A DNA stretch of 32,000 nucleotides from Nostoc punctiforme PCC 73102. Its GTDB lineage: Bacteria; Cyanobacteriota; Cyanobacteriia; Cyanobacteriales; Nostocaceae. The notes under the pieces were generated by a model, which searched no databases, was not told where the DNA came from, and was given only the letters and a program-made list of their open reading frames with translations. This document shows, one piece after another, positions 9,743 to 28,536 of the stretch; position 1 is the stretch's first letter; each line of letters opens with the position of its first letter. The position numbers were made by a program, and so were the translations under genes. The stretch is from NCBI RefSeq assembly GCF_000020025.1, contig NC_010631.1, positions 120,001-152,000 of the forward strand, read 5' to 3'.

Positions 9743-9768
9743 ACAATCTTGGCGATCGCTATCAGACA

Positions 9769-9793: not shown

Positions 9794-9828
9794 ATAAAGG
9801 GGGATTTATCACGTCTTTGCAATCTGGA

Positions 9829-9859
9829 TTTTGCATATCCTCCCACCGATAAGAGATAT
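9829..9859 (+). promoter_or_regulatory. Shared promoter-like motif, copy 1 (upstream of the S8 peptidase gene)
   Basis: ttttgcatatcct-cccaccgat-aagagatat. It ends 25 nt before the ATG at 9884. The architecture is the same as in five other copies. Confidence 0.55.
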
Positions 9860-9883
9860 ATGTTTGTAAATTTCTGAACATTT

Positions 9884-12049
9884 ATGAAACGCATTACATC
9901 TGGTATTTTACTCACTGCTTGTCTTTGGTCTGGGTTGGGGATGTTCTCTATCCGACCACAGGTGACAGCCGTTGCTCAAACCCAAGAGGATAGTAACTTA
10001 TTTTACCTTTATAATGGACAACGCATTTCCTTAAACCAGCGACAAGATGCGATCGCTGTTACTTTTAAAAAAGTCTCTACCCGGAACCCTGCGGCTCAAC
10101 CCCTTTATCTGCAACTCCAGGAATCCCTACAGGGTGGCGTTCGGGGAGGTAGTGGGGCAAAAGTTAGTCCTTTGGGCGAGAATTATGCTGTAGTGAATTT
10201 GCCTGCTGGAACCCTAAATGCCTTACAGCAGCGCATTCAGCAGCAACCCTACGTAGAAAATACTTTACCAGTCCTGACTCGTCAGCAAACCAAAGAAGTT
10301 ATTGTTTTACCCAACGAAATTATCGTTAGTTTTGACCCCAAAGTTGACGAAAGTCAGAGACAGACTATTTTACAGCAGAGTAATCTGACAATTGTGCGTC
10401 CCTTGCGCTTCAACCGCGATCGCTATCTGGTCAAATCCAAGGCGGCGGCTGGAACACAAATCCTCAATGTCGCCAACCAACTCAACAATGTCAAAGGCAT
10501 TTCCTCTGCTCAACCTAACTTCATCCAATCAATTACCGACCAAAATCTCGAAACAGCTAGCAAACAAATAGCGAATCTCAAGGGAACGGAAGATTCGGTA
10601 TTGCGAAAACTCTTACCTAGTTCCCAGTCCCCAGACCCTAGTCCCCAGTCTAGTAGAGGGATTTCTCCAAAAACCAGCTTACTCGGATTGGCGTGGCATT
10701 TGAACAGCTTACCCCTGCAACAATGTTTACCCCAACTATCTAGTTGGGAATTATTACAAACCTGCCTGCAAAAGTCTACTGTCGCCACAAAATCTCCTGT
10801 CTCCCGCACAGATATTCGCGTCACCGAAGCTTGGAAACGTAGCAACGGCGGACGCGGTGTAGTTGTCGCAGTCATAGATAGCTTGATTCAATGGGATCAT
10901 CCTGATTTGGCAGGTAGTCTCTATACTGTGAAAGCGGCTGACAAATGTCCAGATGAAGTCCACGGGTGGGATTTTTCTAGTGGTGGTAATAGTCTCGACC
11001 CCTGCGAAATCGGCGATGGCGATACCCGCATCAGTCGTACTGAACTTGCTATTCTCACAGCCAAATTTCAAGATACCTTCAAATTATCGGATGCAGAATT
11101 AATTCGGCAATATTCTGTTGAAGCGCTGGAGATGAAACAAAAATACCCAAATGCGTCTTTTGAGGAAATTGCTCAGATTTTACGTTACGTTTTTCGCACT
11201 TATAAAGTCGGGGCAGAATTTCATGGTACTTGGGTGAGTGGAATAATTGCCGCTAAACCCCAAGATAATCAGGGATTGGTGGGTGTAGCGCCCAATGCTC
11301 AAATTTTACCTGTGCGGTTGTTTGGATTGAATGGAAGTTACAGTCCTTCTGCCTATATTGAAGCCATTGGTTACGCAGCCGATCGCGGTGCTGATATCAT
11401 TAATCTCAGTTTGGGTAGTACCCTACCAACTGATGGAGAAGAAGAAGCGATCGCAGATGTTCTCAAGGCACATCCTAAACTAGTAATTGTGGCTGCTGCT
11501 GGTAACGAAAACTCTAACCGTGTCGCCTATCCCGCCGCCTATCCGGGAGTAGTGGCTGTTGGTGCAACAAATCTTTTAGGTAATCGCGCTCCTTACAGTA
11601 ACTACGGCAAAGGTTTAGCCATAGTTGCACCAGGAGGAGACTTAAATACCCCAGGAATGCTGGGCGGAATTCCCACCACAGGCGGTACTTGGCTGGATGC
11701 TTTTTGGCAAGGAATGTCCGCCCCTGAATCTCGTTGGTCTACGGTGCTGGATGCGCGGGGCAAATATTGGTGGGTGGAAGGCACATCCTTTGCATCACCA
11801 GCCGTCGCGGGGGTAGTGGCTTTGATGAAAGGAGAAAATAAAGAAATTAGCAGACAAAGTTTGGTGAGTATTTTAAAATCCACAGCTAGTTATCAAGGGC
11901 TAGCTATCTCTGATGATGATGCTAGGAGATATCGCTCACAGCGACGCAAAGGTGAAGTTTCATCTGCGGTTAAAGGTCAGCCTTACTTTTTTGGCAAAGG
12001 ACTGGTGAATGCTAATGCCGCAGTCAAGGCGGTGAAAGAAAAGCGATAA
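9884..12049 (+). CDS. S8 (subtilisin-like) serine peptidase with N-terminal leader and propeptide-like region
   Basis: Catalytic triad motifs are VVAVIDS (Asp codon 10877..10879), HGTWVSG (His codon 11222..11224) and GTSFASPAVAG (Ser codon 11786..11788). The hydrophobic N-terminus ends in VAQT. Confidence 0.9.
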   Translation: MKRITSGILLTACLWSGLGMFSIRPQVTAVAQTQEDSNLFYLYNGQRISLNQRQDAIAVTFKKVSTRNPAAQPLYLQLQESLQGGVRGGSGAKVSPLGENYAVVNLPAGTLNALQQRIQQQPYVENTLPVLTRQQTKEVIVLPNEIIVSFDPKVDESQRQTILQQSNLTIVRPLRFNRDRYLVKSKAAAGTQILNVANQLNNVKGISSAQPNFIQSITDQNLETASKQIANLKGTEDSVLRKLLPSSQSPDPSPQSSRGISPKTSLLGLAWHLNSLPLQQCLPQLSSWELLQTCLQKSTVATKSPVSRTDIRVTEAWKRSNGGRGVVVAVIDSLIQWDHPDLAGSLYTVKAADKCPDEVHGWDFSSGGNSLDPCEIGDGDTRISRTELAILTAKFQDTFKLSDAELIRQYSVEALEMKQKYPNASFEEIAQILRYVFRTYKVGAEFHGTWVSGIIAAKPQDNQGLVGVAPNAQILPVRLFGLNGSYSPSAYIEAIGYAADRGADIINLSLGSTLPTDGEEEAIADVLKAHPKLVIVAAAGNENSNRVAYPAAYPGVVAVGATNLLGNRAPYSNYGKGLAIVAPGGDLNTPGMLGGIPTTGGTWLDAFWQGMSAPESRWSTVLDARGKYWWVEGTSFASPAVAGVVALMKGENKEISRQSLVSILKSTASYQGLAISDDDARRYRSQRRKGEVSSAVKGQPYFFGKGLVNANAAVKAVKEKR

Positions 12050-12071
12050 AATTATAGATATAGGTTGAAAA

Positions 12072-12203
12072 GCGATCGCCACATCTGGTTCAGGTTCGCT
12101 TTGATTTGGTAAAGTAATTGGATCTTGTCCACGAATTACGGCGCGTTCACGAAGTGTCTCCGAATTCGTCAATAGTAAATCGCTTTGGTGTGACAACGTT
12201 CAT
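12072..12203 (-). pseudogene. Internally deleted, frameshifted remnant of a Uma2-family endonuclease gene
   Basis: The minus strand reads ATGAACGTTGTCACACCAAAGCGATTTACTATTGAC (MNVVTPKRFTID), identical to the start of the intact gene at 27477..28064. A stop follows, then a second frame gives ...SEPEPDVAIA. Homology ends at the HIP1 site 12072..12079. Confidence 0.8.
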
Positions 12204-12295
12204 GAGACATCACCAATTTAACTGTTATGTAGTTTCCAGCTTACCATCTGTATTTATTGGCTTTTGCCCATTTTGCAACTTGCACTGTGTATCTA

Positions 12296-12326
12296 GTTTG
12301 CATATCCTTGGGCAGGTGAGAGATAT
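12296..12326 (+). promoter_or_regulatory. Shared promoter-like motif, copy 2 (upstream of TPR-CHAT 12368)
   Basis: gtttgcatatcct-tgggcaggt-gagagatat. It ends 41 nt before the ATG at 12368. Confidence 0.55.
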
Positions 12327-12367
12327 CTCTCTTTAAACTCCCTGCATTACTCCTGACTCTAAAATAT

Positions 12368-15300
12368 ATGCGCGATCGCAAACTTAGTTTAACCACATTG
12401 ATCACTCTCATCTTGAGTGTTTCACAACCCATCGCAAATTTGCCTCCACTATTCCAAGCGTCGCAAGTATTAGCGCAAACGCCAGCGAATCGTAAAGCAG
12501 AAGCAGACCGATTGTTACAGCAAGGTATTGAGCAGCTTCAAAGCAGCCAATTTGAAGCCGCATTAGAATCTTGGCAAAAAGCACTGATGATTTATCGAGA
12601 CATTCAAGATCGTCACGGAGAAGCATCAGCCCTAATTAATTTAGGAACTATTTACCTTTACTTTAATAACAATACTAAAGCAATTGAATACTTTGAACAA
12701 AGTTTAGCCATTGCTAAAGAAAACAAATATTACAACGCTCAAATTGCGGCTTTGGGCAGTTTAGGAGAAATTTATAATTCATTGGGAGACTACAAAAAAA
12801 CAATTGAGTACCATCTTTCTCGCTTAGAGGTTACAAGAAAAATAAAAAATCGATTAGCAGAGAAAGATACGTTACAAGATTTAGCAGAAGCTTACCTAGC
12901 AATGCAAAATTACCCTCAGGCAATAGAAGCCTTAGAAAATTATTTAGTCATTTCACAAAAACTTAAAGATCGTGAAGGAGAAAAGTATGCTCTAGGCTCT
13001 TTAGGAATTTATTATTACTCATCAGGAAACCATGCTAAAGCGATTGAGTATTATCGACAACCTTTAGCAATGGAGTTTTATCAACAAAAATTAATCACAG
13101 CACGAAAAAATAAAAATCGGCAGGTAGAAGCAAGTGCAATTGGGATTATTGCTATTGTTTATGATGCTTTAGGAGATAACACAAAAGCAATTGAATACTA
13201 CGAGGAGCGAATCAAAATTGCGCGTGAACTTAAAGATAAAGAAAACGAAGGACATTATCTTGCTAATCTTGGTTATGCTTACTTAAAAGTCAATCATTAC
13301 AGTAAAGCAGTTGAATCTGCACAAAAAGGTTTAGAAATTGCCAGGGAACTCAAAAACTTCCAAAAACAGGCAGTATGTCTGAGGGTTTTAGGTGAATCAT
13401 ACTCTGGGCTGAATGACAATAAGCAAGCCAACTATTATTATCAGCAATTATTGGCTCTATCACAAGATAAAAAAGATATACCTGATGAAATAGAAATATT
13501 AAGTTCCTTAAGTATTACTTATCGTGAACTTGGATATTATACACAAGCAATAGAATTTGCACAAAGACATTTGTTAATTGCACGAAAACTAAACGACAAA
13601 ATACAGCAGGCAGAAGCACTCACAAATTTAGGAGCAGTTTATAATGATTTAGGCAATTATATCCAAGCCATAGAATATCATAAAGAAAGTTTAAAAATTG
13701 CACAAGAAATTAAATCAATTACTCATGAAGCTAATTCTTTGGGAGAATTAGGGATTGCTTATTTTGATATTAATGATTATGTTAAAGCACTTGATTACTA
13801 TCAACAATTTTTAGCTATAGCCCAAAAACTCAAAGATAAACAAAATGAAGGAATTGCTTTAAGTGAATTAGGTCTTGTTTATGACCAAATAGACGACCAT
13901 AAAAAAGCTATTAATTATTATCAGCTATCTTTAGCTATTGCACGAGAACTTAAAGAAACTCTCCTAGAGGCAAATACTTTAATGAATCTAGGTAGAGCCT
14001 ATATATCTTTGGGAAACTATACAAAAGCAATTGAGTATACACAACAAGGTCTATTTTTAAGCAAAAAGATTAATTATCCTTTAGGAAAAGGATTTGGATC
14101 TACAAATTTAGGACTAGCTTTGTATAGAACTGGTAAACTAGCAGAAGCTGAAAAAGTTTTGGTTGATGGAATTCAAGTTTGGGAATCTTTGCGCTCAGGA
14201 CTTGGGAATAACGATATTCATAAAGTTTCAATTTTTGATAAGCAAGCAAGCATCTACCCTATACTGCAACAAGTTTTAATTGCTCAAAATAAAAATGATG
14301 AGGCTCTAGAAATTGCTGAAAGGGGGCGTTCTAGAGCGTTGTTAGACTTATTAAACTCACGCTTATCTAACAACAATTCCACTCAGTCATTCCAACTCAA
14401 TTTCCAGCAACCTACACTATCACTGCTACAACAAATTGCCAAACAGCAAAAAGCGACACTTATTGAATACTCTATTATTGCTGATAATTTTAAAATTCAG
14501 GGTAAACAAGTAACTTATGAATCAGAACTCTATATCTGGGTAATCAAACCCGCAGGTGAAGTTACCTTCCGCAAAGCTGACCTGAAACCCCTGTGGCAAA
14601 AAGAAAACTCAACCCTTGGCAATCTTGTTATCACCAGTCGTAACTCTATCGGTGCAACAAGTACACCTTTTCGCGGTGCTGTTGATGTAGTTGGTAAACC
14701 CAATGCACCCAAAGCCAAAAATAATTTAAAGCGTCTACACGAATTATTAATCAACCCCATCGCTGACTTATTACCCAAAAATTCTAACGATCACGTTATC
14801 TTCATTCCCCAAAGTAGCCTATTCCTCGTCCCCTTCGCCGCATTACAAGACGCAGACGGTAAATACCTAATTGAAAAACACACTATTCTCACATCACCAT
14901 CAATTCAAGTTTTAGATTTAACCCACAAACAGAAACAACGGACAGGCACAAAACCGATAGAAGGAAAAGATACGCTGATTGTTGGTAATCCAATGATGCC
15001 TTTTCTAGCACCAAAAATCGGCGAAACTCCGCAACAATTAATTTCTTTACCTGGTGCAGAACTTGAAGCAAATGCAATTAGCAAATTACTCAAAACCGAA
15101 CCTCTGATCGGCAACAAAGCAACAGAAGCAACTATAGTCAAGCGTTTACCCCAAGCGCGATTTATTCATTTAGCAACACACGGCATATTTGATGATATCC
15201 AAGGATTAAATAGTGGAATTGCTTTGACTCCATCGGGTAAAGAGGATGGATTATTAACAGCCTCGGAAATCCTCGATCTGAAGCTAAATGCCGAATTAGT

Positions 15301-15580
15301 CGTGTTAAGCGCTTGTGACACCGGACGCGGAAGGATTTCTGGGGATGGGGTAATTGGTTTATCTCGTTCCTTAATTAGTGCTGGTGTCCCCAGCGTCTTA
15401 GTATCGCTGTGGTCGGTTCCAGATACGCCTACAGCACTATTAATGACGGAATTTTATCAAAATCTTCAAAAGAGCCAAGACAAAGCGCAAGCACTGCGAC
15501 AGGCGATGCTGACGACGATGAAAATTAATCCGAATCCCGTTGATTGGGCAGCTTTTACTCTCATTGGCGAAGCTGAGTAG
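12368..15580 (+). CDS. TPR-repeat + CHAT protease (1070 aa) with N-terminal leader
   Basis: Starts ATGCGCGATCGC (MRDRKLSLTTLITLILSV...QVLAQT). It has a long, internally divergent TPR array. The CHAT motifs are HLATHG and LSACDTG, and it ends WAAFTLIGEAE. Confidence 0.93.
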   Translation: MRDRKLSLTTLITLILSVSQPIANLPPLFQASQVLAQTPANRKAEADRLLQQGIEQLQSSQFEAALESWQKALMIYRDIQDRHGEASALINLGTIYLYFNNNTKAIEYFEQSLAIAKENKYYNAQIAALGSLGEIYNSLGDYKKTIEYHLSRLEVTRKIKNRLAEKDTLQDLAEAYLAMQNYPQAIEALENYLVISQKLKDREGEKYALGSLGIYYYSSGNHAKAIEYYRQPLAMEFYQQKLITARKNKNRQVEASAIGIIAIVYDALGDNTKAIEYYEERIKIARELKDKENEGHYLANLGYAYLKVNHYSKAVESAQKGLEIARELKNFQKQAVCLRVLGESYSGLNDNKQANYYYQQLLALSQDKKDIPDEIEILSSLSITYRELGYYTQAIEFAQRHLLIARKLNDKIQQAEALTNLGAVYNDLGNYIQAIEYHKESLKIAQEIKSITHEANSLGELGIAYFDINDYVKALDYYQQFLAIAQKLKDKQNEGIALSELGLVYDQIDDHKKAINYYQLSLAIARELKETLLEANTLMNLGRAYISLGNYTKAIEYTQQGLFLSKKINYPLGKGFGSTNLGLALYRTGKLAEAEKVLVDGIQVWESLRSGLGNNDIHKVSIFDKQASIYPILQQVLIAQNKNDEALEIAERGRSRALLDLLNSRLSNNNSTQSFQLNFQQPTLSLLQQIAKQQKATLIEYSIIADNFKIQGKQVTYESELYIWVIKPAGEVTFRKADLKPLWQKENSTLGNLVITSRNSIGATSTPFRGAVDVVGKPNAPKAKNNLKRLHELLINPIADLLPKNSNDHVIFIPQSSLFLVPFAALQDADGKYLIEKHTILTSPSIQVLDLTHKQKQRTGTKPIEGKDTLIVGNPMMPFLAPKIGETPQQLISLPGAELEANAISKLLKTEPLIGNKATEATIVKRLPQARFIHLATHGIFDDIQGLNSGIALTPSGKEDGLLTASEILDLKLNAELVVLSACDTGRGRISGDGVIGLSRSLISAGVPSVLVSLWSVPDTPTALLMTEFYQNLQKSQDKAQALRQAMLTTMKINPNPVDWAAFTLIGEAE

Positions 15581-15620
15581 GTTTTTAAAGTTATCTCGTA
15601 ACCTGAAAAGTGCTGTACTA

Positions 15621-15651
15621 TTTTGCATAACCTCACACAACCCAGAAATAC
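15621..15651 (+). promoter_or_regulatory. Shared promoter-like motif, copy 4 (upstream of the orthocaspase gene)
   Basis: ttttgcataacct-cacacaacc-cagaaatac. It ends 46 nt before the ATG at 15698. Confidence 0.5.
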
Positions 15652-15697
15652 AATCCTTTAAAGCGATTTGTGCCAATAAATAATAAATAAAATCATA

Positions 15698-17989
15698 ATG
15701 TCTAACATCAAACGCCGTCATTTTCTCCAATTTTCTGCTTCCACTCTCGCAATGTTAGGCTTGAGCCAGTTCGACATCATGCAACAAGCCAACAGCGTAG
15801 GTAAAGTCCTCGCTCAAAGTACAGGCCGCAAACTAGCGCTACTAGTGGGTATTAATGATTATCCTGCAAGCAATGGTTTAGATCCTCTCAAAGGTTGTGA
15901 GAATGATGTCAAATTGCAGGAATACTTACTAATTCACCGCTTTGGCTTCAAACAAGAGGATATTCGCATTTTGCTTAACCAACAAGCCACCCGTCAAGGC
16001 ATCCTCACAGCTTTTGAAAACCATCTAATTGCTCAAGCCAAGCGTGGGGATGTGGTATTATTCCACTACTCTGGACACGGTTCCCAGGTACAAGACCCCG
16101 ATCGCGATTCACCGGATGGACTCAACAGCACGCTTGTTCCTATAGATAGCCCTTTACCAACAGGATTTCCAGCCTTCGGCGGTGCAGTAAAAGATATCAT
16201 GGGACATACGCTATTTTTACTCATGTCTGCGTTAAAAACAGATAACGTCACCTTTGTGCTTGACAGCTGTTTTTCTGGTGGTGGTACGCGGGGAAATCTG
16301 CGGGTGCGATCGCGTTCTGGCGGTGAAAAATTGCAACCTAGTCAAGAAGAATTAGACTATCAGCGTCAATGGCTAAATAAATTGGGGCTTTCACAACAAG
16401 AATTCATTCAAAAACGCCGTCAAAACGTTGCTAAAGGAGTCGTTATCACCAGCGCCAAACGCGATCAATACGCCGCCGATGTTCCTTTTTCGGGTTTCCA
16501 TGCAGGGGCGTTTACCTACTCGCTAACTCAGTATCTTTGGCAGCAAACTGGCAATGAATCTGTCAACAGAGCGATCGCTAATATTGGTCGCAGTACGAAA
16601 GAATTAGCTAGCGAAAATGGTAACGATCAAGACCCAGAATTTGAGTCGAACCTCAGCGAAGAAAATGCCAACACACCTATCTATTTCATCCCTGTCCAGG
16701 CTATCCCAGCTGAGGCTGTAGTCACGCAAGTAACAGAGAACCAAGCACAGTTATGGCTGGGTGGAATAGATTCGCAAAGCTTAGAAGCTTTCAACAGTAA
16801 CTCTGTATTCTCAATAGTGGATGGTCTGGGTAATGAAATCGGACAGGTGCAACTACAATCTCGTCAAGGATTAGTCGGCAGAGGTACGCTGAAATACACA
16901 ACCTCCAAGGGAAAATTACACCCAGGAAATTTATTGCAAGAACGCATCCGCATCATTCCTAGAAATGCAACTTTAAAAATTGGTATTGATGAATCTTTAG
17001 ACAACAAAACTGCCCAGCAGGCAATACAAGCGATGAAAGCACTCAAGCGCGTCGAACCCAAATCTTTAACAAAAGAAGAATTACAATATATCTTTGGGCA
17101 GATGACAAAGACCAAACATCAAGAGTTGCAGAAAAAAGGAGTATCCAAGCTGCCAGTAGTGGGTAGTTTTGGTTTATTTTTACCAAGTCAAGACCAAATT
17201 ATTCCTGCGTCTTTTGGTGCAGCTAGCGAACCCATAACTGAAGCAGTAAAGCGTTTACAACCAAAATTCAAGTCGCTGTTAGCTGCGAGAGTGATCAAAC
17301 AGATTCTGGGAAATACAAATTCATCACGCCTCAACGTCACAGTTTCTATGAATATTGCTGGTAGCAATGAGCTTTTGGCTGAAACTTTCCCGATTCGCGG
17401 TGTAGCTAAAAAACCTCAACAGCCAAATTCCTCAACACCAGTTTCGTCTATTAAGTTTTCTGATGCTGGGTTACGTCAACTACCTGTGGACACCCAGATT
17501 GCTTTCCAAATTAAAAATAATGAGTCTCAACCACTTTACGTCAGTATTTTAGTGATTGATGCCGAAGGCGAAATGACAATTATTTTTCCTAATAAATGGT
17601 CAGACTCAGAAAATGCTGCTTTGGTAGAGGCAAAACAAACACAGTTAATCCCTCAAGCTGATGATGAATTTACACTTACCATAGTTACGCCCTTGGGAGT
17701 TTCAGAAGCATTAATCATTGCCAGTACCACCCCGCTAAAAACTGCTCTCCAAGCATTACAAACAATTGCTAGTAGGTCAACAGACACAAAAAGTCGAAAT
17801 GTTCCTCTCCCTGTTACTAATGAACTGTTAGATGTCACCAATAATTTACTAGATGACTTAGATGCAGGTACTCGTAGCGGCAATAGCGTCAATAACATAC
17901 AATTACCATCGAGCGATCGCGGTGTTGATACTACAAAATTAGCTGCAATGGCGATCGCTTTTGAGGTAATTGCATCATCCAGCAGCTAA
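15698..17989 (+). CDS. Orthocaspase / peptidase C14-like protease with twin-arginine (Tat) signal and a C-terminal DUF4384-like domain
   Basis: The N-terminus KRRHFLQFSASTLAMLGL matches the Tat pattern RR.FL. The caspase fold is indicated by LALLVGINDY, HYSGHG (His codon 16076..16078) and LDSCFSGG (Cys codon 16268..16270). The C-terminal block ...IAFQIKNNESQPLYVSILVIDAEGEMTIIFPN resembles DUF4384. Confidence 0.88.
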   Translation: MSNIKRRHFLQFSASTLAMLGLSQFDIMQQANSVGKVLAQSTGRKLALLVGINDYPASNGLDPLKGCENDVKLQEYLLIHRFGFKQEDIRILLNQQATRQGILTAFENHLIAQAKRGDVVLFHYSGHGSQVQDPDRDSPDGLNSTLVPIDSPLPTGFPAFGGAVKDIMGHTLFLLMSALKTDNVTFVLDSCFSGGGTRGNLRVRSRSGGEKLQPSQEELDYQRQWLNKLGLSQQEFIQKRRQNVAKGVVITSAKRDQYAADVPFSGFHAGAFTYSLTQYLWQQTGNESVNRAIANIGRSTKELASENGNDQDPEFESNLSEENANTPIYFIPVQAIPAEAVVTQVTENQAQLWLGGIDSQSLEAFNSNSVFSIVDGLGNEIGQVQLQSRQGLVGRGTLKYTTSKGKLHPGNLLQERIRIIPRNATLKIGIDESLDNKTAQQAIQAMKALKRVEPKSLTKEELQYIFGQMTKTKHQELQKKGVSKLPVVGSFGLFLPSQDQIIPASFGAASEPITEAVKRLQPKFKSLLAARVIKQILGNTNSSRLNVTVSMNIAGSNELLAETFPIRGVAKKPQQPNSSTPVSSIKFSDAGLRQLPVDTQIAFQIKNNESQPLYVSILVIDAEGEMTIIFPNKWSDSENAALVEAKQTQLIPQADDEFTLTIVTPLGVSEALIIASTTPLKTALQALQTIASRSTDTKSRNVPLPVTNELLDVTNNLLDDLDAGTRSGNSVNNIQLPSSDRGVDTTKLAAMAIAFEVIASSSS

Positions 17990-18341
17990 CTCTTGTATGT
18001 TTGGCGTGGATAAATTTGTGATTTTAAGAAGATTTTGGACAGGTTGTCCAAGTTTACCTTCCAAAAACGTCCAAAAAATAACATAAAGGAAAGCTAAATA
18101 AACAACATATTTATAAAAATGTAATTTACGCCTGATGTGAATTAAAAACATCTCTCATACCATAAGGGTTGCTAGATTCGCTCCAAATCATTATTTTGGG
18201 ACTAACTACGAAATTACAAGGGTTTCAAGACTTAATTTACATTAAACGTAATTTATTTAATTACACTAATCTGGTGGCTGGTGTTTATCCTTTCAATCAG
18301 GATCTAAAAGTAGTAAACGTCGATTAGGAGAACCGACAAGC

Positions 18342-19550: not shown

Positions 19551-19578
19551 AATAAATAATAACTCCTTAAAATCCCAG

Positions 19579-20475
19579 ATGAGTAAATTTCGTCGCAGTT
19601 TCTGGCTATATCCTTTATTTCAGATTCCGTTAATCGTGTTTGGAGTTTGTTTAGTTGCGACTGTTTTGTGTTCACTTTTAGGGTTGGGTAGACCTAGTGT
19701 AGCAGTAGCGATCGCTCTGGATATGAGCAACAGCACCTACGAAGGTAAATCATTCAACGCACCTGATACTGTGATGGCTCAAGAAGTGGCGGCGGTGCGA
19801 TCGTATATTGAGCAAAACTCCCAGCAATTAAAATCTCCTAACAATATCCAAATTTTTGGGTTTGGCGATCGAGTCATTCCCTTAACTAATTCCTTCACAT
19901 CAGATAGACAAAAGTTAGAAGCTGAGTTGAATTTAGCTCTAGCAAACCCTAATTTGTCATCTCAGATTGGTACTGAAACAAATCTCAGTCAATCCATTGA
20001 TCAAGGTACAAAACTTCTCAGTAATATTCAAGATCGTTGCCGTGAATTATTGCTCGTCACTGATGGAGTCGCTGAGGTGATACCATCAGTTTTGACTCAG
20101 GCAGTAGCTCAAAAAGTCAAAATCAATGCTGTGGTGGTAGGAGCAAATGCTCCCCAAATCAAGTCAGCTACCGACATCACCAACGGAATTTATCTATCCG
20201 GTGAATCGAACAATCTGCAAATATTTTTTAAAGATATATTTTTTACTAGCTTTAATAGCAATGTCAAATGGGTTTATTTCTGGCGAGGTTGTACCTGGAT
20301 TGCTTTGATGTGGCTAATTATCTTGCCTTTAGATAAATGGGTTTTTCAAGGGTTAATTAACTTACCAATGAACCTTAGTGGTCAGTTAGCTTTAGGCAAT
20401 GCTTTATTTTGGACTGTTGTTACTCCCCTAATTCTTTGGCAATTATCTGGCTTACCTTTTTTCTCAAATTGTTGA
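19579..20475 (+). CDS. Membrane protein with von Willebrand factor A (vWA) domain
   Basis: N-terminal TM after KFRR. The MIDAS motif DMSNS is at 19720..19734, followed by GTETNL and LLVTDG. Two or three C-terminal hydrophobic helices follow. It starts 28 bp after the preceding gene. Confidence 0.8.
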   Translation: MSKFRRSFWLYPLFQIPLIVFGVCLVATVLCSLLGLGRPSVAVAIALDMSNSTYEGKSFNAPDTVMAQEVAAVRSYIEQNSQQLKSPNNIQIFGFGDRVIPLTNSFTSDRQKLEAELNLALANPNLSSQIGTETNLSQSIDQGTKLLSNIQDRCRELLLVTDGVAEVIPSVLTQAVAQKVKINAVVVGANAPQIKSATDITNGIYLSGESNNLQIFFKDIFFTSFNSNVKWVYFWRGCTWIALMWLIILPLDKWVFQGLINLPMNLSGQLALGNALFWTVVTPLILWQLSGLPFFSNC

Positions 20476-20570
20476 GGCAGAAAGCAAAAGTTTTGAGTTA
20501 GCCATTAACAAATAATCAAAGGTAAATAAAGCTTCATTTGTTGAAGTTAAAAAATTAAAAAGAGAAAATT

Positions 20571-23500: not shown

Positions 23501-23897
23501 GTCGGCAAAACTAGCCGATGCTGACCAAGCCCAAGACAAACTAGACTTGTACGACCAGTTCATAAACTATTTGAAGCAGCGAGAAGCAGAACTAGAAAAA
23601 ATTGGGGGTAGCGATAGCCCAGATTACAAACGCGAAGCCACAATTATTAAAGATTTAATCACTTCTGAGAACCTGCAACTAAATAATAAAAGCAAACCCC
23701 CAGTTATTCAGCTTGTAATTTCTCCTGAGAAGCCGCTAGTTGATCTTATTGAGGAGCCTCACATATCAAATATTTCCCCTGTTGAGCCTCCTTTTATGGC
23801 AGGTGCAAATGTTTTTTGTACCGAGTGTGGTGAGCAAAACCCGGCCCGGTCTAAATTTTGCTACAACTGCGGGACTCGATTAGTTAAACTTAATTGA
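20571..23897 (+). CDS. Tubulin/FtsZ-superfamily-like GTPase (Tubulin_2-type) with long helical extension and C-terminal zinc ribbon
   Basis: The T1-like loop GVGGTGT is at 20616..20636. The tubulin signature GGTGSG is at 21090..21107. The remaining roughly 750 aa are rich in charged, coiled-coil-like sequence. The C-terminus has CTEC-x10-CYNC (23818..23871). An alternative start at the ATG at 20595 is possible. Confidence 0.75.
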   Translation: MAAVEEKSMVPTVLVGVGGTGTEVLSRVRRLIEEAYGSLNNFPIISFFSIDTDKDYKVSNPEVTGSPLKDHEKHWASVSGREVNDIMSNMEKYPWIESWFPRELERNIGALEAGAGQIRACGRFAFFYNYHKIRQRFFEACDRVKGHESLMLEKYDIRVSSGGLNVFVVGSISGGTGSGMLIDIGYCLRNWLKGQGSPLITAIIPMPNAFASINVGDRVLANGYAALMELSYFSDYRTEYISQFSAGLVDEVRNKLPPFDFTYLVGTKNGESEFNLDQIREMIAQNVFLDLTSDFAPHKRSIRDNIKGAWAQADPGGRGYPKNFMSFGLSTIEIPIAQIHNSLSNRLSMDLVNWWLNESVSLPPNVLDLIQKDILKGMRLTETELIADLSSAADKSYISEVSGWINSIRNEIASDNKLQCTHQGVNMIGTERGKILRFLDDYLIPKVDEYRANHLRELSADERTHGDFLQKMYDNRDRIIQQGRQAIEAEFYKIMRDRNLGPKFADAFITNVRQLFANASEKFRRESEKVWQPNEINRQQQYEAALQDINQFKNLFGLTKQAQMEKYCEEALTGLESSFIAIIQHKSRTLSLQVIERILEHLDRMEQRLARFNQKLRQLRDDFKQKADKEADSADALKINGFKLYNREELNLLYQDMIEQLAGAIQGSKSRYEIGLNQICTTMSEDILRDASPLWKQTRTAGEVMQLFDITQLQEVNYEDFKEIVAVKTQLVVKKSPQESRLNQDLAACDRLFKSLQNDPEAIRSNIRIAYQRSQPLILLSQAVLSGADAGFTPALNTKVAIVGGRNSSDPTAIKLIPYLQERVGNADSITPLGQQEQHRIVFVQEKGGFSLRCIDGIRELRQSYQDWKGQSIEAKRSQLRGETKDLPVPVHIQKEPPFWDVFPENPEVFKLVVQARALGVLRLEENRNTEEKVIRYTRETVIGSENVEIASSWEEAVQVLEVLACRPDKEAIGRQVSAKLADADQAQDKLDLYDQFINYLKQREAELEKIGGSDSPDYKREATIIKDLITSENLQLNNKSKPPVIQLVISPEKPLVDLIEEPHISNISPVEPPFMAGANVFCTECGEQNPARSKFCYNCGTRLVKLN

Positions 23898-23952
23898 TTT
23901 AGCAGGGCGAACTTGAATTTACAGTTTTGGTTAGAGTGTTGTCAGTGCCTTG

Positions 23953-23970
23953 ATAGCATGGTGCTATTTT
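23953..23970 (+). terminator. Weak hairpin plus T-run downstream of the tubulin-like gene
   Basis: ATAGCA-tgg-TGCTAT followed by TTT. The stem is short and AT-rich, so this is only a candidate. Confidence 0.25.
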
Positions 23971-24152
23971 CCTTACGGGGGGACAAAAAGGGCTAGGACG
24001 CAGATGGAATAAGCCTCATAGCCCTCTCTCCTTGCTGATAGTACTTACGCTTATTAGGATTTAGCATCAATAATTCGGCGACTAATTCATAGGAATTTTC
24101 CATGAAATTGATCCAATTGTGTCCATAAAGACCAATATAAAACAATACGGGT

Positions 24153-25558
24153 TCAGTTAAAGCTAAAAAGCTGATTATTAATGTGAAATTTCGGAGCTTG
24201 TACTTGTTTTCCAGTACTTCTGTGTTTAGGCTTTTTAGAAGAAAACTTTGATACAGGTTTTTTCACAACCCTGGGGTTAGTACGGTGAACTCGTTTCGGT
24301 AACAACGTATCCAGATCTCTACGGTTAACCAATCGAAAAAAGGGGGAATTCTTCTGGTGGTAAATGTTGAAATTTAGGAATAGCACGACAATGACTCGTA
24401 ATGTTCCTGTAAAACTTAGACGCAACGGAGACAGAAGCATTAGTTGCTGCTTGAAATATTAACACTCAAACTGACCAATGTCCCAACAACCAACCATACA
24501 CTTCTTGTACAACTTCTCGTAGTTTTTGGGAACGGACATGGGTTTTTCGACCCAAAAGATGGATTTTCAATTCATCACTGGTATTTTCTACTTCCCAACG
24601 TTGATGATATTCCTCAGCTAACAACTCTGCCGGGAATTTTTCAATGTCTAACAGGCTAGTAATCAAGCGATATATCACTTGTTTTTCTGGGTTATCAGGA
24701 TGCTCAATTATGTACTCGATAACTCTTACTGATATTGGCTGACAATCCTTTTTTCGTAACTTTCCAGATGGGTAAATCGATGACAGATAAGAACCATCTG
24801 GCAACGATTTTTCTGTAAAAAATTTAACATTGGCAGGAATTCTCCCTAAATAGTCACAACCCTTAGATACTGTTGCGTGTACCATTGCATACGAATGCAA
24901 TCCCCTATCCCACATCAACAACATTCCTGATGTTACCGAGCGTAATAATTTTAATGCCCGCACTCGTTCTCCGATGCGGTATGGACACTCTTATTGCATC
25001 AAATATGATGTGTGTTCCTGCTTCTACCAATATGACTAATCTGACTTTGGGAAAAGCTGCTTGTGTGCCTGGACGACTACCAGGACGACCAAAAACTCTC
25101 GCATTTTCATGACTATCTGGAACATCAAAACAAGTACCGTCAATCACCACAATTCTCAGCCCATTTAGAAATGCTCCTATCGTTTCACCAGTCGCCATTG
25201 GTTGTACTAACTGGTGAAATAATTGGCTCATCACTCCTGCTCCCAATCTTGCCGAGCTTGAGTAATTGCTGACTTACAAGGTACTCGCCAGTATTTACCT
25301 ACCTTCACCCATCCCTCAGAAAGACCATCAATCAAGTTTTTAAGTATATCCCACATTGAGTCTTTTGACCATAGACTCATTGCAATTACCAGACTTACCA
25401 CTAATTGCGCTGGTAGCGGGAAGCGAAGCTATGCCGCAGGCTTATCGCTTGCGCTCCTCTTCAGTTTGGGTATTAGTGATCGCTTCTTCGATTGCAGTTG
25501 CTGGAATCGCCATCTCGATTGCTTTAAGCACATCACCACTTCGTATCTCAGGAGACAT
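24153..25558 (-). pseudogene. IS4-family DDE transposase broken by frameshifts and in-frame stops
   Basis: Pieces lie in different frames. They are MSPEIRSGD...EERKR*, LPAQLVVSLVIAMSLW..., RLGAGVMSQ..VIDGTCFDVPDS.., MRALKLL..LLMWDRG..YHQRWEVENTSDELK (the Y-2-R-3-E-6-K signature), HWSV*(TGA)VLIFQAA.. and SPLRLSFTG..NPRVVKK. Confidence 0.85.
25409..25450. repeat. Short GC-rich dispersed repeat, copy inside the IS transposase gene
   Basis: gctggtagcgggaagcgaagctatgccgcaggcttatcgctt resembles 28391..28433. It supplies stop codons in the transposase reading frames. Confidence 0.6.
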
Positions 25559-25689
25559 CAACGAGAAATCCCTCAGATGCACAATACTGAACTTTCTTTC
25601 TTGGGAACAGTCTTTAATTTACATGACTTTGAGCCTTAACTGAACCGTATTGTTTTTTTATTTGGAAGTTCCTTGGCATATAGCTCTGA

Positions 25690-25720
25690 TTTTGCATAAC
25701 CTCTCAACACTTAGAGATAT
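25690..25720 (+). promoter_or_regulatory. Shared promoter-like motif, copy 5 (upstream of the small TPR gene)
   Basis: ttttgcataacct-ctcaacact-tagagatat. It ends 57 nt before the ATG at 25778 and starts 31 nt after the IS end. Confidence 0.55.
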
Positions 25721-25777
25721 ATACCTGTGAAGAGCAAGAAAACCTCTGCAATATTTAATATTTTAGGAGATACAACA

Positions 25778-26284
25778 ATGAAAGGTTTGAAACTAGTAGC
25801 AGCTATTTTAGTATTTGGAACATTGACTTTTACACCCAAAGCTGAAGCGAAAAGCTTGTTCAACACTCAACAAGTCATAGCACAAGTTCCTGACTCGCAA
25901 ACTGAAAATCCGAAGGATACCGAAACATACTTTAAACGGGGTTTTAAGCGGATAGAATCGAAAGATTATCGAGGAGCAATTGAAGATTTTAACCAAATCC
26001 TGAAGATTGAACCTAACAATGCTTATGCCTACGTTGGTAGAGGATTAGGTAATTTTTGTCTGGATGAATATCAAGCAGCAAAGACAGATTTTGACAAAGC
26101 TATAGAAATTACTCCCGATATTCCCTATGCCTATTATTTCCGAGGTTTGACAAACTTTGCTTTAAAAGACAAACCAGCAGCGATCGCTGATTTACAGAAA
26201 TCATTCACGCTGTTTAAACAAGAAGGGAATCAGGAATTCGCCCAAAAAGCCACCGACGCACTTCAGAAGATACAAGAGAGTTAA
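25778..26284 (+). CDS. Small secreted TPR-repeat protein
   Basis: The ATG at 25778 lies 7 nt after AGGAGA (25765..25770). The signal peptide is MKGLKLVAAILVFGTLTFTPKAEA, followed by QQVIAQV. Three TPR units of the type AY..RG......Y..A..DF..A are present. The track's GTG start at 25727 is less likely. Confidence 0.85.
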   Translation: MKGLKLVAAILVFGTLTFTPKAEAKSLFNTQQVIAQVPDSQTENPKDTETYFKRGFKRIESKDYRGAIEDFNQILKIEPNNAYAYVGRGLGNFCLDEYQAAKTDFDKAIEITPDIPYAYYFRGLTNFALKDKPAAIADLQKSFTLFKQEGNQEFAQKATDALQKIQES

Positions 26285-26317
26285 ATTCCATTGCATAATT
26301 CTGATGACATATCCAGC

Positions 26318-26358
26318 AACCGGATTTTGCAATTTTTTGTCTGTAAAATCCGGTTTTT
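26318..26358 (+). terminator. Rho-independent terminator candidate for the small TPR gene
   Basis: An 11-bp perfect stem AACCGGATTTT (26318..26328) / AAAATCCGGTT (26345..26355) with a 16-nt loop, followed by TTT. Confidence 0.5.
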
Positions 26359-26377
26359 ATGGAAATATCTGCCCAAT

Positions 26378-26408
26378 TTTCGCATATCCTTTAAAAGCTG
26401 AGAAATAT
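26378..26408 (+). promoter_or_regulatory. Shared promoter-like motif, copy 6 (upstream of the decayed TPR gene)
   Basis: tttcgcatatcct-ttaaaagct-gagaaatat. Spacing is the same, but TTGCAT reads TCGCAT. It ends 34 nt before the ATG at 26443. Confidence 0.45.
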
Positions 26409-26442
26409 ACACCACTGAGTCAGTCTGCTGGAGTTTTTGCTA

Positions 26443-27464
26443 ATGGGCTACCGTCTGAAGTACCTCATCCTTGCTACTGTAGGGCTTTCCTTTGCCCCCT
26501 TGTCTCCTCTTTCTCCCGTCTCTTTGTCTCCCTTGGTGGTGCAGGCGCAAACGACACAACAGCCTAGTCCTGAAGAAACAAACAGGGAGAAGGAACAACC
26601 CTCAACAATATTGGCTTTGTTTACAATAATCAAGGACAGTATGCCAAAGCTTTGGTAGCTTATCAGCAAGCTTTAGCTATTCGCAAACAAATCAATCAAA
26701 AAGCATTGGTAGGAGAAAGCCTCAATAACATTGGCTCTGTTTACGAAAATTTGGGACAGTACGATCAAGCATTGAAGTTTTATCAGCAAGCTTTAACTAT
26801 TCTCCAACAAATTGGCAGCAAGGTAGGTGAAGGAAAAACTCTGAACAATATTGGCTTTGTTTACAATAATCAAGGACAGTATGCCAAAGCTTTAAATTAC
26901 TATGTACAAGCTTTAACTATTCTTCAAAAAATTGGTGACAAAGCAGGTGGAGGTAAAACTCTCGATAATATCGGTGTGGTTTATGACAACCAGAGAGATT
27001 ATGCCAAAGCATTCGGATTTCATCAGCAAGCTTTAGCCATTTTCAAACAAATTGGTGATACAGCAGGTGAAGGCAAAACTCTTAATAATATTGGTGGGGT
27101 TTATTATAATCAGAAAGAGTATGCCAAAGCTTTGGAATTTTATCAGGAAGCTTTAGTTATTGTCAAACAAGTCGGTGATAAAGCGTCGGAAGGAACATTT
27201 CTCAATAATATTGGTTCTGCTTACGATAAATTAGGACAATATGAAAATGCTGAAAAAACGCTATTTACTGCAATTGAGATTTGGGAGTCTTTGCGAAAGA
27301 ACGAATTAACTGATGCTCAAAAAATTTCACTCTTTGAAATACAAGCCGAAACCTACCGTTTTCTGCAAAGGAGTCTGATTGCCCAGAATAAAATTAATTC
27401 TGCCTTAGAAGTGAGCGATCGCCTCATTCCCCAAACCAAACATCGTAGGCGCAGCCTGTCGTAG
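26443..27464 (+). pseudogene. Frameshifted, 3'-truncated paralogue of the TPR-CHAT gene at 1..1707 (leader + TPR only, CHAT lost)
   Basis: The ATG at 26443 follows GGAG. The leader MGYRLKYLILATVGLSFA...VVQAQT is in frame 1. The TPR frame opens only after the TGA at 26571 (track ORF 26652..27464). Nucleotide homology to 1..534 stops at the HIP1 site 27415..27422, inside ...ALEVSDR, where the paralogue continues into CHAT. Confidence 0.65.
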
Positions 27465-27476
27465 ACATTGCTGTTT

Positions 27477-28064
27477 CTAAGCACTAACAACCGTAGGAAA
27501 AATCCGGCTCAAGTCTAATAAGACATCTTCAAATCCAGGAATTGCCACTGACTGATGGGGCAAAGATATCTGCTTGCTGAGATAATTATATTCACCTTGA
27601 GCAGTTTGATAAGGTTGGCTGTAACGCTCAAGTTGGCGAAAATTTAAGTTGACAATCCAATAATTAGAAATTCCGGCTTCTGCGTAGACTTCTAACTTTG
27701 TTGTTTGGTCGTAATCGAGGGTTGAATCGGAAATTTCAATCACTAAAAAAATATCTTCAGGATAGGGATGATGGGGAAGATAGTCAGTCTCATTTCCTCG
27801 TGCGATCGCCACATCTGGTTCAGGTTCACTATCTGATGGTAGTATGATTGGCTCTTGACAACGCACAACAGCGCCATCGCCCAGCAATCGATCCAGTTGT
27901 CTACAAAGCCGAGTTGTGCAAAATGTATGAGGTGTGCCTTTGGCTACCATCTGAATGAGTTCTCCGCGAATCAATTCAATGCGATCATTCTCCTTTAGAA
28001 ATTCCAGTTCAATCAGTCGATGATATTCATCAATAGTAAATCGCTTTGGTGTGACAACGTTCAT
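27477..28064 (-). CDS. Uma2-family (DUF820) restriction-endonuclease-fold protein
   Basis: The 195-aa ORF MNVVTPKRFTIDEYHRLIE...ELIRGELI.M...EPEPDVAI...LVIEISDST...D...K...YA..GI..YWIV is typical of the family that is expanded in cyanobacteria. Confidence 0.88.
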   Translation of the reverse strand: MNVVTPKRFTIDEYHRLIELEFLKENDRIELIRGELIQMVAKGTPHTFCTTRLCRQLDRLLGDGAVVRCQEPIILPSDSEPEPDVAIARGNETDYLPHHPYPEDIFLVIEISDSTLDYDQTTKLEVYAEAGISNYWIVNLNFRQLERYSQPYQTAQGEYNYLSKQISLPHQSVAIPGFEDVLLDLSRIFPTVVSA

Positions 28065-28140
28065 GAGACATCACCGATTTAACTGTGGTATGTACTTTCT
28101 AGCTTACCATCTGTATTTATTGGCTTTTGCCCATCTTGCG

Positions 28141-28299
28141 ATCTGACTTTTCACGGTAAGTTCTCAACTAACCAAAATACGTAGTTTTTTCTACAGGATT
28201 ATTCGCAATAGTCTTAAACTAATGACAATAATCAACGGGAAAATAGAGGCTGGAAGAAAGCGAAAAATGACCTTTTCCACATACCGTGAAAAGTCAGAT
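28141..28299. repeat. MITE-like element bounded by an 18-bp perfect inverted repeat
   Basis: ATCTGACTTTTCACGGTA (28141..28158) and TACCGTGAAAAGTCAGAT (28282..28299) flank 123 bp without an ORF. It lies in a roughly 300-bp segment that is absent from the homologous intergenic region at 12280..12296. Confidence 0.55.
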
Positions 28300-28390
28300 A
28301 TTGTGATCGCTAAATTTTCTTATAAAACATGTGAGACATCTTGATTTAGAATACACTCACAATAATAAACCGCCCTTGATCACAAACCAA

Positions 28391-28433
28391 GCTGTTGGCG
28401 GTAAGCGTAGCCATGCCGTCAGGCTTATCGCTT
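28391..28433. repeat. Short GC-rich dispersed repeat, second copy
   Basis: gctgttggcggtaagcgtagccatgccgtcaggcttatcgctt is similar to 25409..25450. Confidence 0.6.
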
Positions 28434-28459
28434 TTGTTCACTCTTGCACAGCGGCTCGA

Positions 28460-28490
28460 ATTTGCATATCCTTCAGCAGGTGAGAGATAT
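28460..28490 (+). promoter_or_regulatory. Shared promoter-like motif, copy 3 (upstream of TPR-CHAT 28537)
   Basis: atttgcatatcct-tcagcaggt-gagagatat. It ends 46 nt before the ATG at 28537. Confidence 0.55.
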
Positions 28491-28536
28491 ATTATATCTC
28501 CTTAAACTCGCTGCATTACTGCTGACTCTAAAATCT

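Follow-up and report, generated by a model that had tools for sequence, protein, structure and literature searches.

The window, by which we mean the whole 32,000-nt stretch of Nostoc punctiforme DNA analysed here, carries the following genes. Their assignments had been proposed in an earlier note from the letters alone (S8 peptidase, TPR-CHAT twice, orthocaspase, small TPR and decayed TPR) and were borne out by Pfam:

9884..12049, plus strand: S8 (subtilase) peptidase, 721 aa; Pfam Peptidase_S8 (E value of 7e-51); hydrophobic leader with the end VAQT
12368..15580, plus strand: TPR-CHAT protein A, 1070 aa; Pfam CHAT (E value of 1e-75) and TPR families; leader with the end VLAQT
15698..17989, plus strand: orthocaspase, 763 aa; Pfam Peptidase_C14 and DUF4384; twin-arginine-type leader KRRHFLQF
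25778..26284, plus strand: small secreted TPR protein, 168 aa from the ATG; Pfam TPR families; leader
26443..27464, plus strand: frameshifted TPR(-CHAT) pseudogene, three-frame translation; Pfam TPR on 26652-27464
28537..31602, plus strand: TPR-CHAT protein B, 1021 aa from the ATG; Pfam CHAT (E value of 3e-76) and TPR families

TPR-CHAT gene B is a paralogue of TPR-CHAT gene A. In the pseudogene, the leader and the TPR repeats lie in different frames and the CHAT part is absent. The longest mechanically called ORFs of two genes begin upstream of the ATG (GTG 25727 for the small TPR gene and TTG 28444 for TPR-CHAT gene B), and the ATGs at 25778 and 28537 agree with the N termini of homologues. 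IS remnants are also present in the window.

In front of these genes lie six copies of one element, TTTGCATAWCCT-N9-RAGARATAY, all intergenic and on the same strand, where 0.02 copies would be expected by chance:

9829..9859, plus strand: motif copy 1, TTTTGCATATCCT-cccaccgat-AAGAGATAT, exact, with a top weight-matrix score; putative S8 peptidase promoter, 24 nt to ATG 9884
12296..12326, plus strand: motif copy 2; putative promoter of TPR-CHAT gene A, 41 nt to ATG 12368
15621..15651, plus strand: motif copy 3; putative promoter of the orthocaspase gene, 46 nt to ATG 15698
25690..25720, plus strand: motif copy 4; putative promoter of the small TPR gene, 57 nt to ATG 25778
26378..26408, plus strand: motif copy 5, TCGCAT variant; precedes the decayed TPR gene, 34 nt to ATG 26443
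28460..28490, plus strand: motif copy 6; putative promoter of TPR-CHAT gene B, 46 nt to ATG 28537

A search of the window for TTGCATAWCCT-N10-AGARATA with up to two mismatches returned these six plus-strand sites and no others; five of them are exact, and the copy at 26378 carries one mismatch (TCGCAT). Dinucleotide shuffles yielded a mean of 0.02 sites, and 0/100 shuffles gave six. When both strands of the window were scanned with a 50-nt weight matrix, the six copies scored 50-59 bits, the runner-up fell below -7, and neither strand held a further site. The six plus-strand positions given in the earlier note were confirmed, as was its observation that the copies end shortly before start codons on the same strand; the distance to a sensible ATG is 24-57 nt, and the orientation of the copy is that of the downstream gene in all cases. 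The earlier note was also correct in that the PstS-like/vWA/tubulin operon (PBP_like_2/Tubulin_2) has no motif in front of it and that the first three genes, which encode CHAT proteins, have none within the window; the promoter of the latter would fall outside it. An alignment of the flanks showed that only the paralogous pair 12296/28460 aligns, while the flanks of the other copies are unrelated. The proposal of the earlier note that nonparalogous genes share a promoter-like element is supported.

A scan of species genomes located the motif at no fewer than 120 loci, at least 66 of them cyanobacterial (67 exact sites). Among the matches listed, the cyanobacterial sites belonged to Nostocales, Okeania, Waterburya, Coleofasciculaceae, and Aphanothece, and 55 of the 67 lay outside long ORFs, compared with 15 of 54 noncyanobacterial sites. 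Most of the cyanobacterial sites listed were intergenic and lay just upstream of leader-bearing TPR/CHAT, S8, caspase, or small TPR genes. Column counts over 47 nonredundant sites among the matches listed revealed conservation even at positions that the search pattern had left free, namely T at +20 (31/47), C or G at +21 (37/47), C or T at +29 (44/47), A at +30 (40/47), and a purine at +39 (42/47). The motif consists of two parts at a fixed distance, aaTT-TTGCATAWCCT-C, 8 variable bases, and T-S-AGARATA-Y-A. For 44 dereplicated proteins encoded downstream of the matches listed, Pfam assigned TPR families to 20, CHAT to 7, S8 to 4, and C14 to 3. A hydrophobic N terminus was present in 28/44 of these proteins versus 38/132 neighbouring ORFs, and a leader combined with an AQ motif was enriched among them (p = 2e-4). 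The motif is a promoter-type signal, conserved in several cyanobacterial orders, that stands before exported protease and caspase-like genes. The earlier note had spoken of a local regulon; the shared element stood, but its limitation to this locus did not, since the element is conserved in several cyanobacterial orders.

The motif, or a weaker variant of it, was also found upstream of the gene of a candidate regulator, an uncharacterised, cyanobacteria-specific protein of ~460 aa without a Pfam match (hereafter the sigma-like gene). In related loci the operon has the order sigma-like gene, DUF1822, CHAT-CHASE2, DUF928; the DUF1822 gene follows the sigma-like gene in all loci checked and is often itself preceded by the motif or a weaker variant. 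The distance between motif and sigma-like gene was 134-290 nt in Aphanothece, MAG PMM_0086, and Okeania. In Nostocales the copies lie back to back, one facing the S8 gene and a variant facing the divergent sigma-like gene; the orthologues of the S8 peptidase gene in other Nostocales are divergent from the sigma-like gene. In Nostoc locus L205, the orthologous motif and small TPR gene are situated directly downstream of the sigma-like/DUF1822/CHASE2/DUF928 cluster.

As an independent set we used 80 metagenome loci picked solely by the sigma-like gene. The pattern TGCA[TA]A-N14-[AG]GA..TA occurred upstream of this gene in the forward orientation in 34 of 76 loci and in the reverse orientation in 4, and the spacing between its two parts was essentially 14 only. 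Only about half of the independent loci carry a recognisable upstream motif, and the variants that precede sigma-like genes deviate from the consensus of the target promoters. Searched in its strict form (at least 16/18 positions), the motif gave 36 matches in these loci and 0 in shuffled sequence; 11 matches lay directly before DUF1822, 4 before the sigma-like gene, and 35/36 outside ORFs (p = 8.5e-27). When helix-turn-helix (HTH) and promoter variants were tabulated against each other, lineage-specific patterns appeared; this co-variation was not used as evidence because it is confounded by phylogeny.

Could the motif be a dispersed repeat or mobile-element remnant, or a 5′-leader RNA element (hairpin, riboswitch), with no role in initiation? 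Points in its favour are the IS remnants mentioned above and the complementarity, in some copies, of ATATC in the left block to GATAT in the right block. However, the flanks are not conserved, neither terminal repeats nor a target duplication were seen, and the element always lies on the strand of the downstream gene. Nor is the pairing kept, as position 8 is A in 26/47 sites and position 25 is A in 28/47, either of which breaks a pair, and the window has no Rfam match at the gathering score. We consider such an element very improbable. A dispersed repeat or MITE was disfavoured by the non-aligning flanks, the co-orientation with genes, and the 35/36 independent matches outside ORFs; a repeat with no bias toward gene starts, which the earlier note had named as refuting its proposal, is the opposite of what was seen, namely a strand-oriented element at gene starts in many genomes. 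A hairpin or structured RNA was likewise rejected, since ATATC/GATAT, the only pairing available, is broken in most sites without compensation and Rfam gave no match.

The position and conservation of the six elements suggest that they are promoters. A canonical sigma-70 promoter was rejected, as the consensus is missing at all six sites: a scan of 9700-29000 for TTGACA and TATAAT (each with at least 4/6 matches, 16-18 nt apart, A2 and T6 in the -10) listed none of the six motif positions, and its total of 41 hits compares with 43.3 in shuffled sequence. Pho box, NtcA, and HLR1 sites were rejected by simple inspection against their consensus sequences, there being no repeated half-site and no GTA-N8-TAC. 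Across the 47 sites, T-A-R is weakly conserved ~8 to 10 nt downstream of the right block, which suggests that this block may itself serve as the -10 or as an extended -10. Judged by this conservation only, transcription would probably start ~8-10 nt past the right block; this would put TGCATA at about -37/-32 and the right block at about -19/-9, and for copy 1 the start would fall near 9868-9869. The suggestion of the earlier note that the motif is recognised by a bound regulator or by a sigma factor of specialised type gains support from the unmatched sigma-70 consensus and from the motif upstream of the linked sigma-like gene.

Is the ~460-aa protein a sigma factor? It has no significant Pfam or NCBIfam sigma domain, and a profile search of PDB sequences retrieved no sigma factor. 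When two AlphaFold models of homologues ~40% identical to each other were submitted to Foldseek, the best PDB match was a sigma-A chain each time (8dy9_F with an E value of 0.16; 9a58_A with an E value of 0.085 and a probability of 0.82) over ~370-400 columns, although the sigma-A matches are weak, with E values of 0.085-0.6 and TM-scores of ~0.2. Using hhalign, the HTH fell on region 4.2 of Escherichia coli RpoE (E value of 0.04), with a probability of ~1% and a single sequence as the template. The protein begins with a beta-hairpin module, contains a helical insert of ~200 aa, and has invariant cysteines; its family spans at least 681 clusters at 50% identity. The models hint that the protein may be a highly divergent sigma-70/ECF-like factor. 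It is the best candidate for the reader of the motif.

The lack of detectable sigma-70 domains also suits a different reading, in which the motif is the site of a classical transcription factor working with a housekeeping or group-2 sigma factor. The ~460-aa HTH protein could then be an activator or repressor and not a sigma factor, TAYAnn in the right block would be a poor -10, and the left block would be an activator site overlapping the -35. Indeed, the left block, at 11-13 nt, exceeds the length of an ordinary -35, the 3′ edge shows a conserved TAYA, and the unmatched sigma-70 consensus fits activator-dependent promoters, which typically have no good -35. On the other hand, the motif is asymmetric, without the dyad or direct repeat that dimeric factors usually need, and position -7 of the TAYAnn hexamer is T in just 10/47 sites. 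The bipartite layout, fixed spacing, and autoregulation are typical of alternative sigma promoters, and full-length sigma-A chains were the best structural matches of two independent models. We therefore regard a classical factor as unlikely.

Alternatively, a known alternative sigma factor (group-3 SigF/SigJ-type or ECF-type SigG) might read the motif, the sigma-like/DUF1822 operon being one more member of its regulon. The closest resemblance is to the SigJ J-Box of N. punctiforme, GGGaAtacT, in which an invariant GGG stands immediately upstream of aAtacT, the mapped -10 (Gonzalez et al. 2019, PMC6495340). Our putative promoter signature, like the J-Box, is cyanobacteria-wide, would serve an alternative sigma factor, and has an xxxAATAC-type extended -10, and the right half of the motif, AGAAATAC(A), resembles the J-Box, with the right block AGAAATAC matching 6/9 of its positions. 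However, the GGG is replaced by AGA in all six window copies and by AGA or GGA in regulator-gene promoters anchored on TGCATA alone. The J-Box has no conserved -35, whereas TGCATA at a fixed spacing is the most constant feature of our motif, and the conserved upstream block TGCATAWCCT occurs only in the latter. Neither TGCATAACC nor TGCATATCC was found in the N. punctiforme hormogonium-regulated promoter data sets (PMC6495340), and a SigJ/J-Box regulon was rejected on the grounds of this absence and of the missing GGG. The gene sets differ as well, comprising exported proteases and CHAT proteins here and pili, chemotaxis, and cell shape for the J-Box. Since autoregulation is the simpler explanation for the tight physical linkage, seen across orders, between the motif and the sigma-like/DUF1822 locus, we hold a known alternative sigma factor to be improbable.

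We favour the reading, with a probability of roughly 0.58, that the six elements are promoters of a conserved cyanobacterial regulon read by a divergent, autoregulated sigma-like factor. The products of the regulon would be exported TPR-CHAT proteins, an S8 protease, an orthocaspase, and small TPR proteins. The factor itself would be encoded elsewhere in the genome, together with DUF1822 (TRADD-N+TPR), a CHAT/caspase-CHASE2 membrane sensor, and DUF928. In the proposed circuit, the CHASE2 sensor would pick up an extracellular signal, its caspase-like domain would then become active, and the sigma-like factor, freed from or activated via DUF1822, would transcribe its own operon and the dispersed leader-bearing protease/CHAT genes, including the six in the window. 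Because its own operon carries the motif or weaker variants, the factor would be autoregulated in the manner of ECF factors; a motif beside the regulator gene would also be expected if the operon were a mere target of another factor. A bolder proposal, to which we give slightly less than even odds, is that a hitherto unrecognised sigma-70 superfamily branch, which Pfam does not detect, forms the transcriptional output of a caspase-like CHASE2/TRADD-N signalling module and, acting through the motif, switches on a secreted CHAT/orthocaspase/subtilase arsenal across cyanobacteria. Such a circuit would explain how the cyanobacterial 'cell-death' proteases, long enigmatic, are regulated.

Orthocaspases and proteins with a CHAT domain are abundant in cyanobacteria and often tied to programmed cell death, multicellularity, and defence. 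Our literature search found neither an account of their regulation nor a description of the motif. The motif marks putative protease/CHAT promoters across orders and offers a means of predicting regulon members in any cyanobacterial genome. If correct, the favoured reading would provide a first concrete output for the predicted EACC2/TRADD-N conflict system, and add a sigma-like family missed by current domain libraries.

The arrangement recalls autoregulated ECF (group 4) systems in several respects. Their promoters, like our motif, are bipartite with fixed spacing, deviate from the sigma-70 consensus, and stand before both the factor's own operon and dispersed genes for envelope or exported proteins; a motif upstream of the regulator's own gene or operon, a feature of ECF autoregulation, was found in related loci. 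As in ECF operons, a partner that would be co-transcribed and a membrane sensor are so placed that they may control the candidate factor. In contrast to ECF factors, the candidate is ~460 aa long and matches no Pfam model for regions 2 and 4 of sigma-70. The 'AAC' -35 and 'CGT' -10 signatures common in ECF promoters are absent from the motif, and the partner is DUF1822 (TRADD-N+TPR) and not a known anti-sigma domain.

Kaur, Iyer, Burroughs, and Aravind (eLife 2021, PMC8195603) describe an ECF sigma factor and DUF1822 beside EACC2-caspase-CHASE2 genes and predict for the sigma factor a role in 'transcription regulation of a multiplicity of genes'; their table often gives '??' or 'HTH' for the gene that precedes DUF1822. 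The predicted EACC2-caspase/TRADD-N system and our related loci have in common DUF1822, a caspase-like (CHAT) CHASE2 protein, TPR-caspase genes, and an associated sigma/HTH gene in a matching operon order. In the passages and table part consulted, we found no promoter motif or regulon. DUF1822 next to EACC2 and caspase with CHASE2 was found in related loci and not in the window. As the window has no sigma-like, DUF1822, or CHASE2 gene, it presumably represents a set of regulon targets and not the EACC2/TRADD-N system itself. The orthocaspase gene and its putative promoter have near-identical counterparts in the Nostoc MAG loci L030 and L091, and the closest named relatives were Nostoc MAGs (L030, L071, L091, and L205).

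We scanned the window with the pattern TTGCATAWCCT-N10-AGARATA, allowing at most 2 mismatches. The scan returned exactly the six sites that the earlier note had reported, all on the + strand, and gene calling assigned the following genes to them:

9829, + strand: copy 1, followed by an S8 peptidase gene
12296, + strand: copy 2, followed by a TPR-CHAT gene
15621, + strand: copy 3, followed by a Peptidase_C14/DUF4384 orthocaspase gene
25690, + strand: copy 4, followed by a gene for a small TPR protein
26378, + strand: copy 5, followed by a frameshifted TPR gene (26443-27464)
28460, + strand: copy 6, followed by a second TPR-CHAT gene

Dinucleotide-shuffled versions of the window gave a mean of 0.02 matches, and six were reached in 0 of 100 shuffles. 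A weight matrix of 50 nt, derived from these six sites, recovered no additional one on either strand of the window. When 230-nt stretches of the six copies were aligned, the common sequence amounted to the 31-bp core plus a few bases 3′ of it; likeness of the flanks beyond the core was confined to the pair 12296/28460, which lies upstream of the paralogous TPR-CHAT genes. Readings of these copies as a dispersed repeat or as an RNA element are disfavoured. Between 24 and 57 nt separate the end of each motif from a sensible ATG, and the observation of six copies near gene starts thus holds as it was written. As a separate feature, the right block of copy 2 runs into a perfect 14-bp palindrome, GAGAGATATCTCTC (12319-12332), and copy 6 has a related but interrupted palindrome; this palindrome is not conserved in the remaining copies or in other genomes.

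Applied to a collection of genomes at species level, the strict pattern yielded at least 120 loci. Among the matches listed, at least 66 loci (67 sites) were cyanobacterial and came from several orders, including Nostoc, Calothrix, Scytonema, Fischerella, Tolypothrix, Dolichospermum, Okeania, Waterburya, Coleofasciculaceae and Aphanothece. This count takes in two contigs from an 'Acetobacteraceae' bin, almost identical to the caspase promoter of the window, as well as a locus titled only 'uncultured bacterium' (L076), which is nearly the same in site and flank as a Waterburya locus. Both contigs belong to the bin Green_W.bin.2: L030 has the caspase promoter and gene in almost identical form, L118 shares with the copies of the window both the motif and its upstream flank, and the two are almost certainly misbinned Nostoc DNA. 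Among the matches listed, 55 of the 67 cyanobacterial sites lay outside long open reading frames (ORFs), compared with only 15 of 54 in other bacteria, the latter as chance matches would be expected to do. Of the proposed 'local regulon', the copies in the window were confirmed but not the restriction to it, since the motif is found across several cyanobacterial orders.

Column counts over 47 non-redundant cyanobacterial sites among the matches listed, taken at positions that the search pattern left free, revealed conservation of A at −3, T at −1 and 0, and C at +12. Further preferences were T at +20 (31/47), C or G at +21 (37/47), C or T at +29 (44/47) and A at +30 (40/47), followed by a less strongly conserved T-A-R at +37 to +39; the base at +39 was a purine in 42 of the 47 sites. 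The extended consensus reads aaTT-TTGCATAWCCT-C-N7-T-S-AGARATA-Y-A. A pyrimidine-purine step follows the right block at a distance of 8 to 10 nt and looks like a transcription start; if transcription began there, the right block would span approximately −19 to −9 and TGCATA approximately −37 to −32. The motif is a conserved, oriented, bipartite element at gene starts.

The genes behind this element form a coherent set. In the cyanobacterial loci, the first sizeable ORF 3′ of the motif usually starts 14 to 70 nt after it and usually encodes an N-terminal hydrophobic leader and then (V/L)AQ(T/S). Pfam domains among 44 dereplicated downstream proteins were TPR (20), Peptidase_S8 (4), Peptidase_C14 (3) and CHAT (7, with further CHAT proteins cut by locus ends). 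A hydrophobic N terminus was present in 28 of these 44 proteins versus 38 of 132 other ORFs of the same loci, and the leader together with the AQ motif in 15/44 versus 12/132 (Fisher P = 2 × 10−4). Judged by these gene types and leaders, the genes of the window are typical members of a wider set. The motif also occurs upstream of genes for RTX/FG-GAP proteins in four loci (L130, L131, L161 and L039), so the regulon may reach beyond proteases. Proteins with RTX (HemolysinCabind) and FG-GAP repeats adjoin the cluster of the candidate regulator described below in non-Nostocales and in one Nostoc cluster (L205), and no motif was found upstream of the RTX/FG-GAP gene of the latter.

The candidate regulator, a protein of approximately 460 amino acids, has no gene in the window, which displays presumed regulon targets only. 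In Aphanothece, Okeania and the uncultured-cyanobacterium MAG PMM_0086, the motif lies 134 to 290 nt upstream of its gene. In Nostocales, the gene is divergent from an S8 peptidase gene; the strict motif points towards the latter and a weaker variant, TTGCATAAGGTCAATTTCCTCAGAACTAC, towards the regulator gene. On a plasmid of Tolypothrix sp. PCC 7712 (L207, 8583-8666), the two motifs stand back to back, 28 bp apart, and a third copy precedes a gene for a 1249-amino-acid TPR protein. An independent set comprised 80 metagenome loci picked by the regulator protein alone, without regard to the motif. Here, TGCA[TA]A-N14-[AG]GA..TA was present in forward orientation upstream of the regulator gene in 34 of 76 loci, versus 4 for the reverse orientation, and the spacing was essentially 14 only. 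The strict motif, matched at 16 or more of 18 positions, occurred 36 times in 768 kb and 0 times in shuffled sequence, and 35 of the 36 sites lay outside ORFs although these make up 84% of the bases (P = 8.5 × 10−27). Eleven sites directly preceded the gene next to the regulator gene, which encodes a DUF1822 protein, and 4 preceded the regulator gene itself; the remainder included sites before RTX/FG-GAP and small secreted proteins. The motif is thus tied physically and evolutionarily to the regulator/DUF1822 operon, including copies in the operon's own upstream regions. We also observed this gene pair on large plasmids of Tolypothrix, Calothrix, Aulosira, Nostoc sp. HK-01, Leptolyngbya boryana and others (plasmid hits H1 to H18), in some strains as two or three paralogues.

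The conserved operon order is regulator, DUF1822, a CHAT+CHASE2 protein of approximately 830 amino acids, and DUF928. In Kaur et al. 2021 (PMC8195603), the EACC2-caspase systems show the same arrangement, and their sigma factor is proposed to regulate many genes; the supplementary table classes DUF1822 proteins as TRADD-N+TPR and often labels the upstream gene '??' or 'HTH'. The regulator family (667 homologues in one search and 744 in another; 681 clusters at 50% identity in a representative library search) is cyanobacterial wherever the source names the organism. The regulator had no match in Pfam or NCBIfam, and no significant hit emerged from profile searches of Pfam and of PDB sequences. 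For AlphaFold models of two family members approximately 40% identical to each other (pLDDT of 82.6 and 79.4), the best Foldseek matches in the PDB were sigma-A chains over approximately 370 to 400 columns (8dy9_F, E value of 0.16; 9a58_A, E value of 0.085 and probability of 0.82; Thermus and Mycobacterium sigma-A as well). Using hhalign, the segment ALxLFHCQGxSMxEIAxxxGLxAQYQVTRL aligned to region 4.2 of Escherichia coli RpoE with an E value of 0.04 and low probability. Together, these predictions are no more than suggestive of a sigma factor. On visual inspection, SLSTWTTRLV looks similar to FxTWLxRIA, the signature of region 2.3/2.4. Further features of the family are an N-terminal beta module of two strands and a disordered acidic linker at approximately residues 271 to 298. 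Cysteines C74, C84, C225, C350 and C451 are invariant and C71 nearly so (alignments A3 and A5; numbering of protein P0001), and in a cytoplasmic regulator they may form a metal or redox site.

We infer that the 31-bp element is a promoter, which the protein of approximately 460 amino acids would read as a sigma-like factor controlled by DUF1822 and the CHAT-CHASE2 sensor. Given how weak the sigma assignment is, action of a conventional activator together with the housekeeping sigma factor stays plausible. Reading by a known group-3 sigma factor is less likely, as the motif shares no more than the AATAC core with the SigJ J-Box of Nostoc punctiforme (GGGaAtacT; PMC6495340) and does not occur in the hormogonium promoter tables of that study. 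An alternative-sigma-type promoter with autoregulation is a familiar kind of element. In the literature searched, we found no description of the motif or of a regulon for the regulator/DUF1822 system; neither the factor and its partners nor a regulon comprising exported CHAT, caspase and S8 proteins is described there.

Further genes of the window are as follows:

1756-3201 and 3224-9742: two complete CHAT genes, preceded by a CHAT gene cut by the window start
18342-23897: operon for a PBP_like_2 protein, a 298-amino-acid protein without a Pfam match and a 1108-amino-acid Tubulin_2 protein ending in a zinc ribbon
24153-25246 and 27477-28064, − strand: insertion sequence remnants (DDE_Tnp_1 fragment) and a Uma2-family endonuclease-like gene

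In agreement with the earlier note, neither the complete CHAT genes at the start nor the PstS-like/tubulin operon is preceded by the motif within the window. The two CHAT proteins have a hydrophobic leader ending in (V/L)LAQT, as in the motif-bearing genes, and given this leader, the operon-like packing of all three CHAT genes and a promoter that would fall upstream of the window, the trio may belong to the same regulon. The operon at 18342-23897 looks like a separate system embedded among regulon genes. The Uma2 gene occupies the place where the frameshifted TPR gene would be expected to have its CHAT half, which suggests a local rearrangement.
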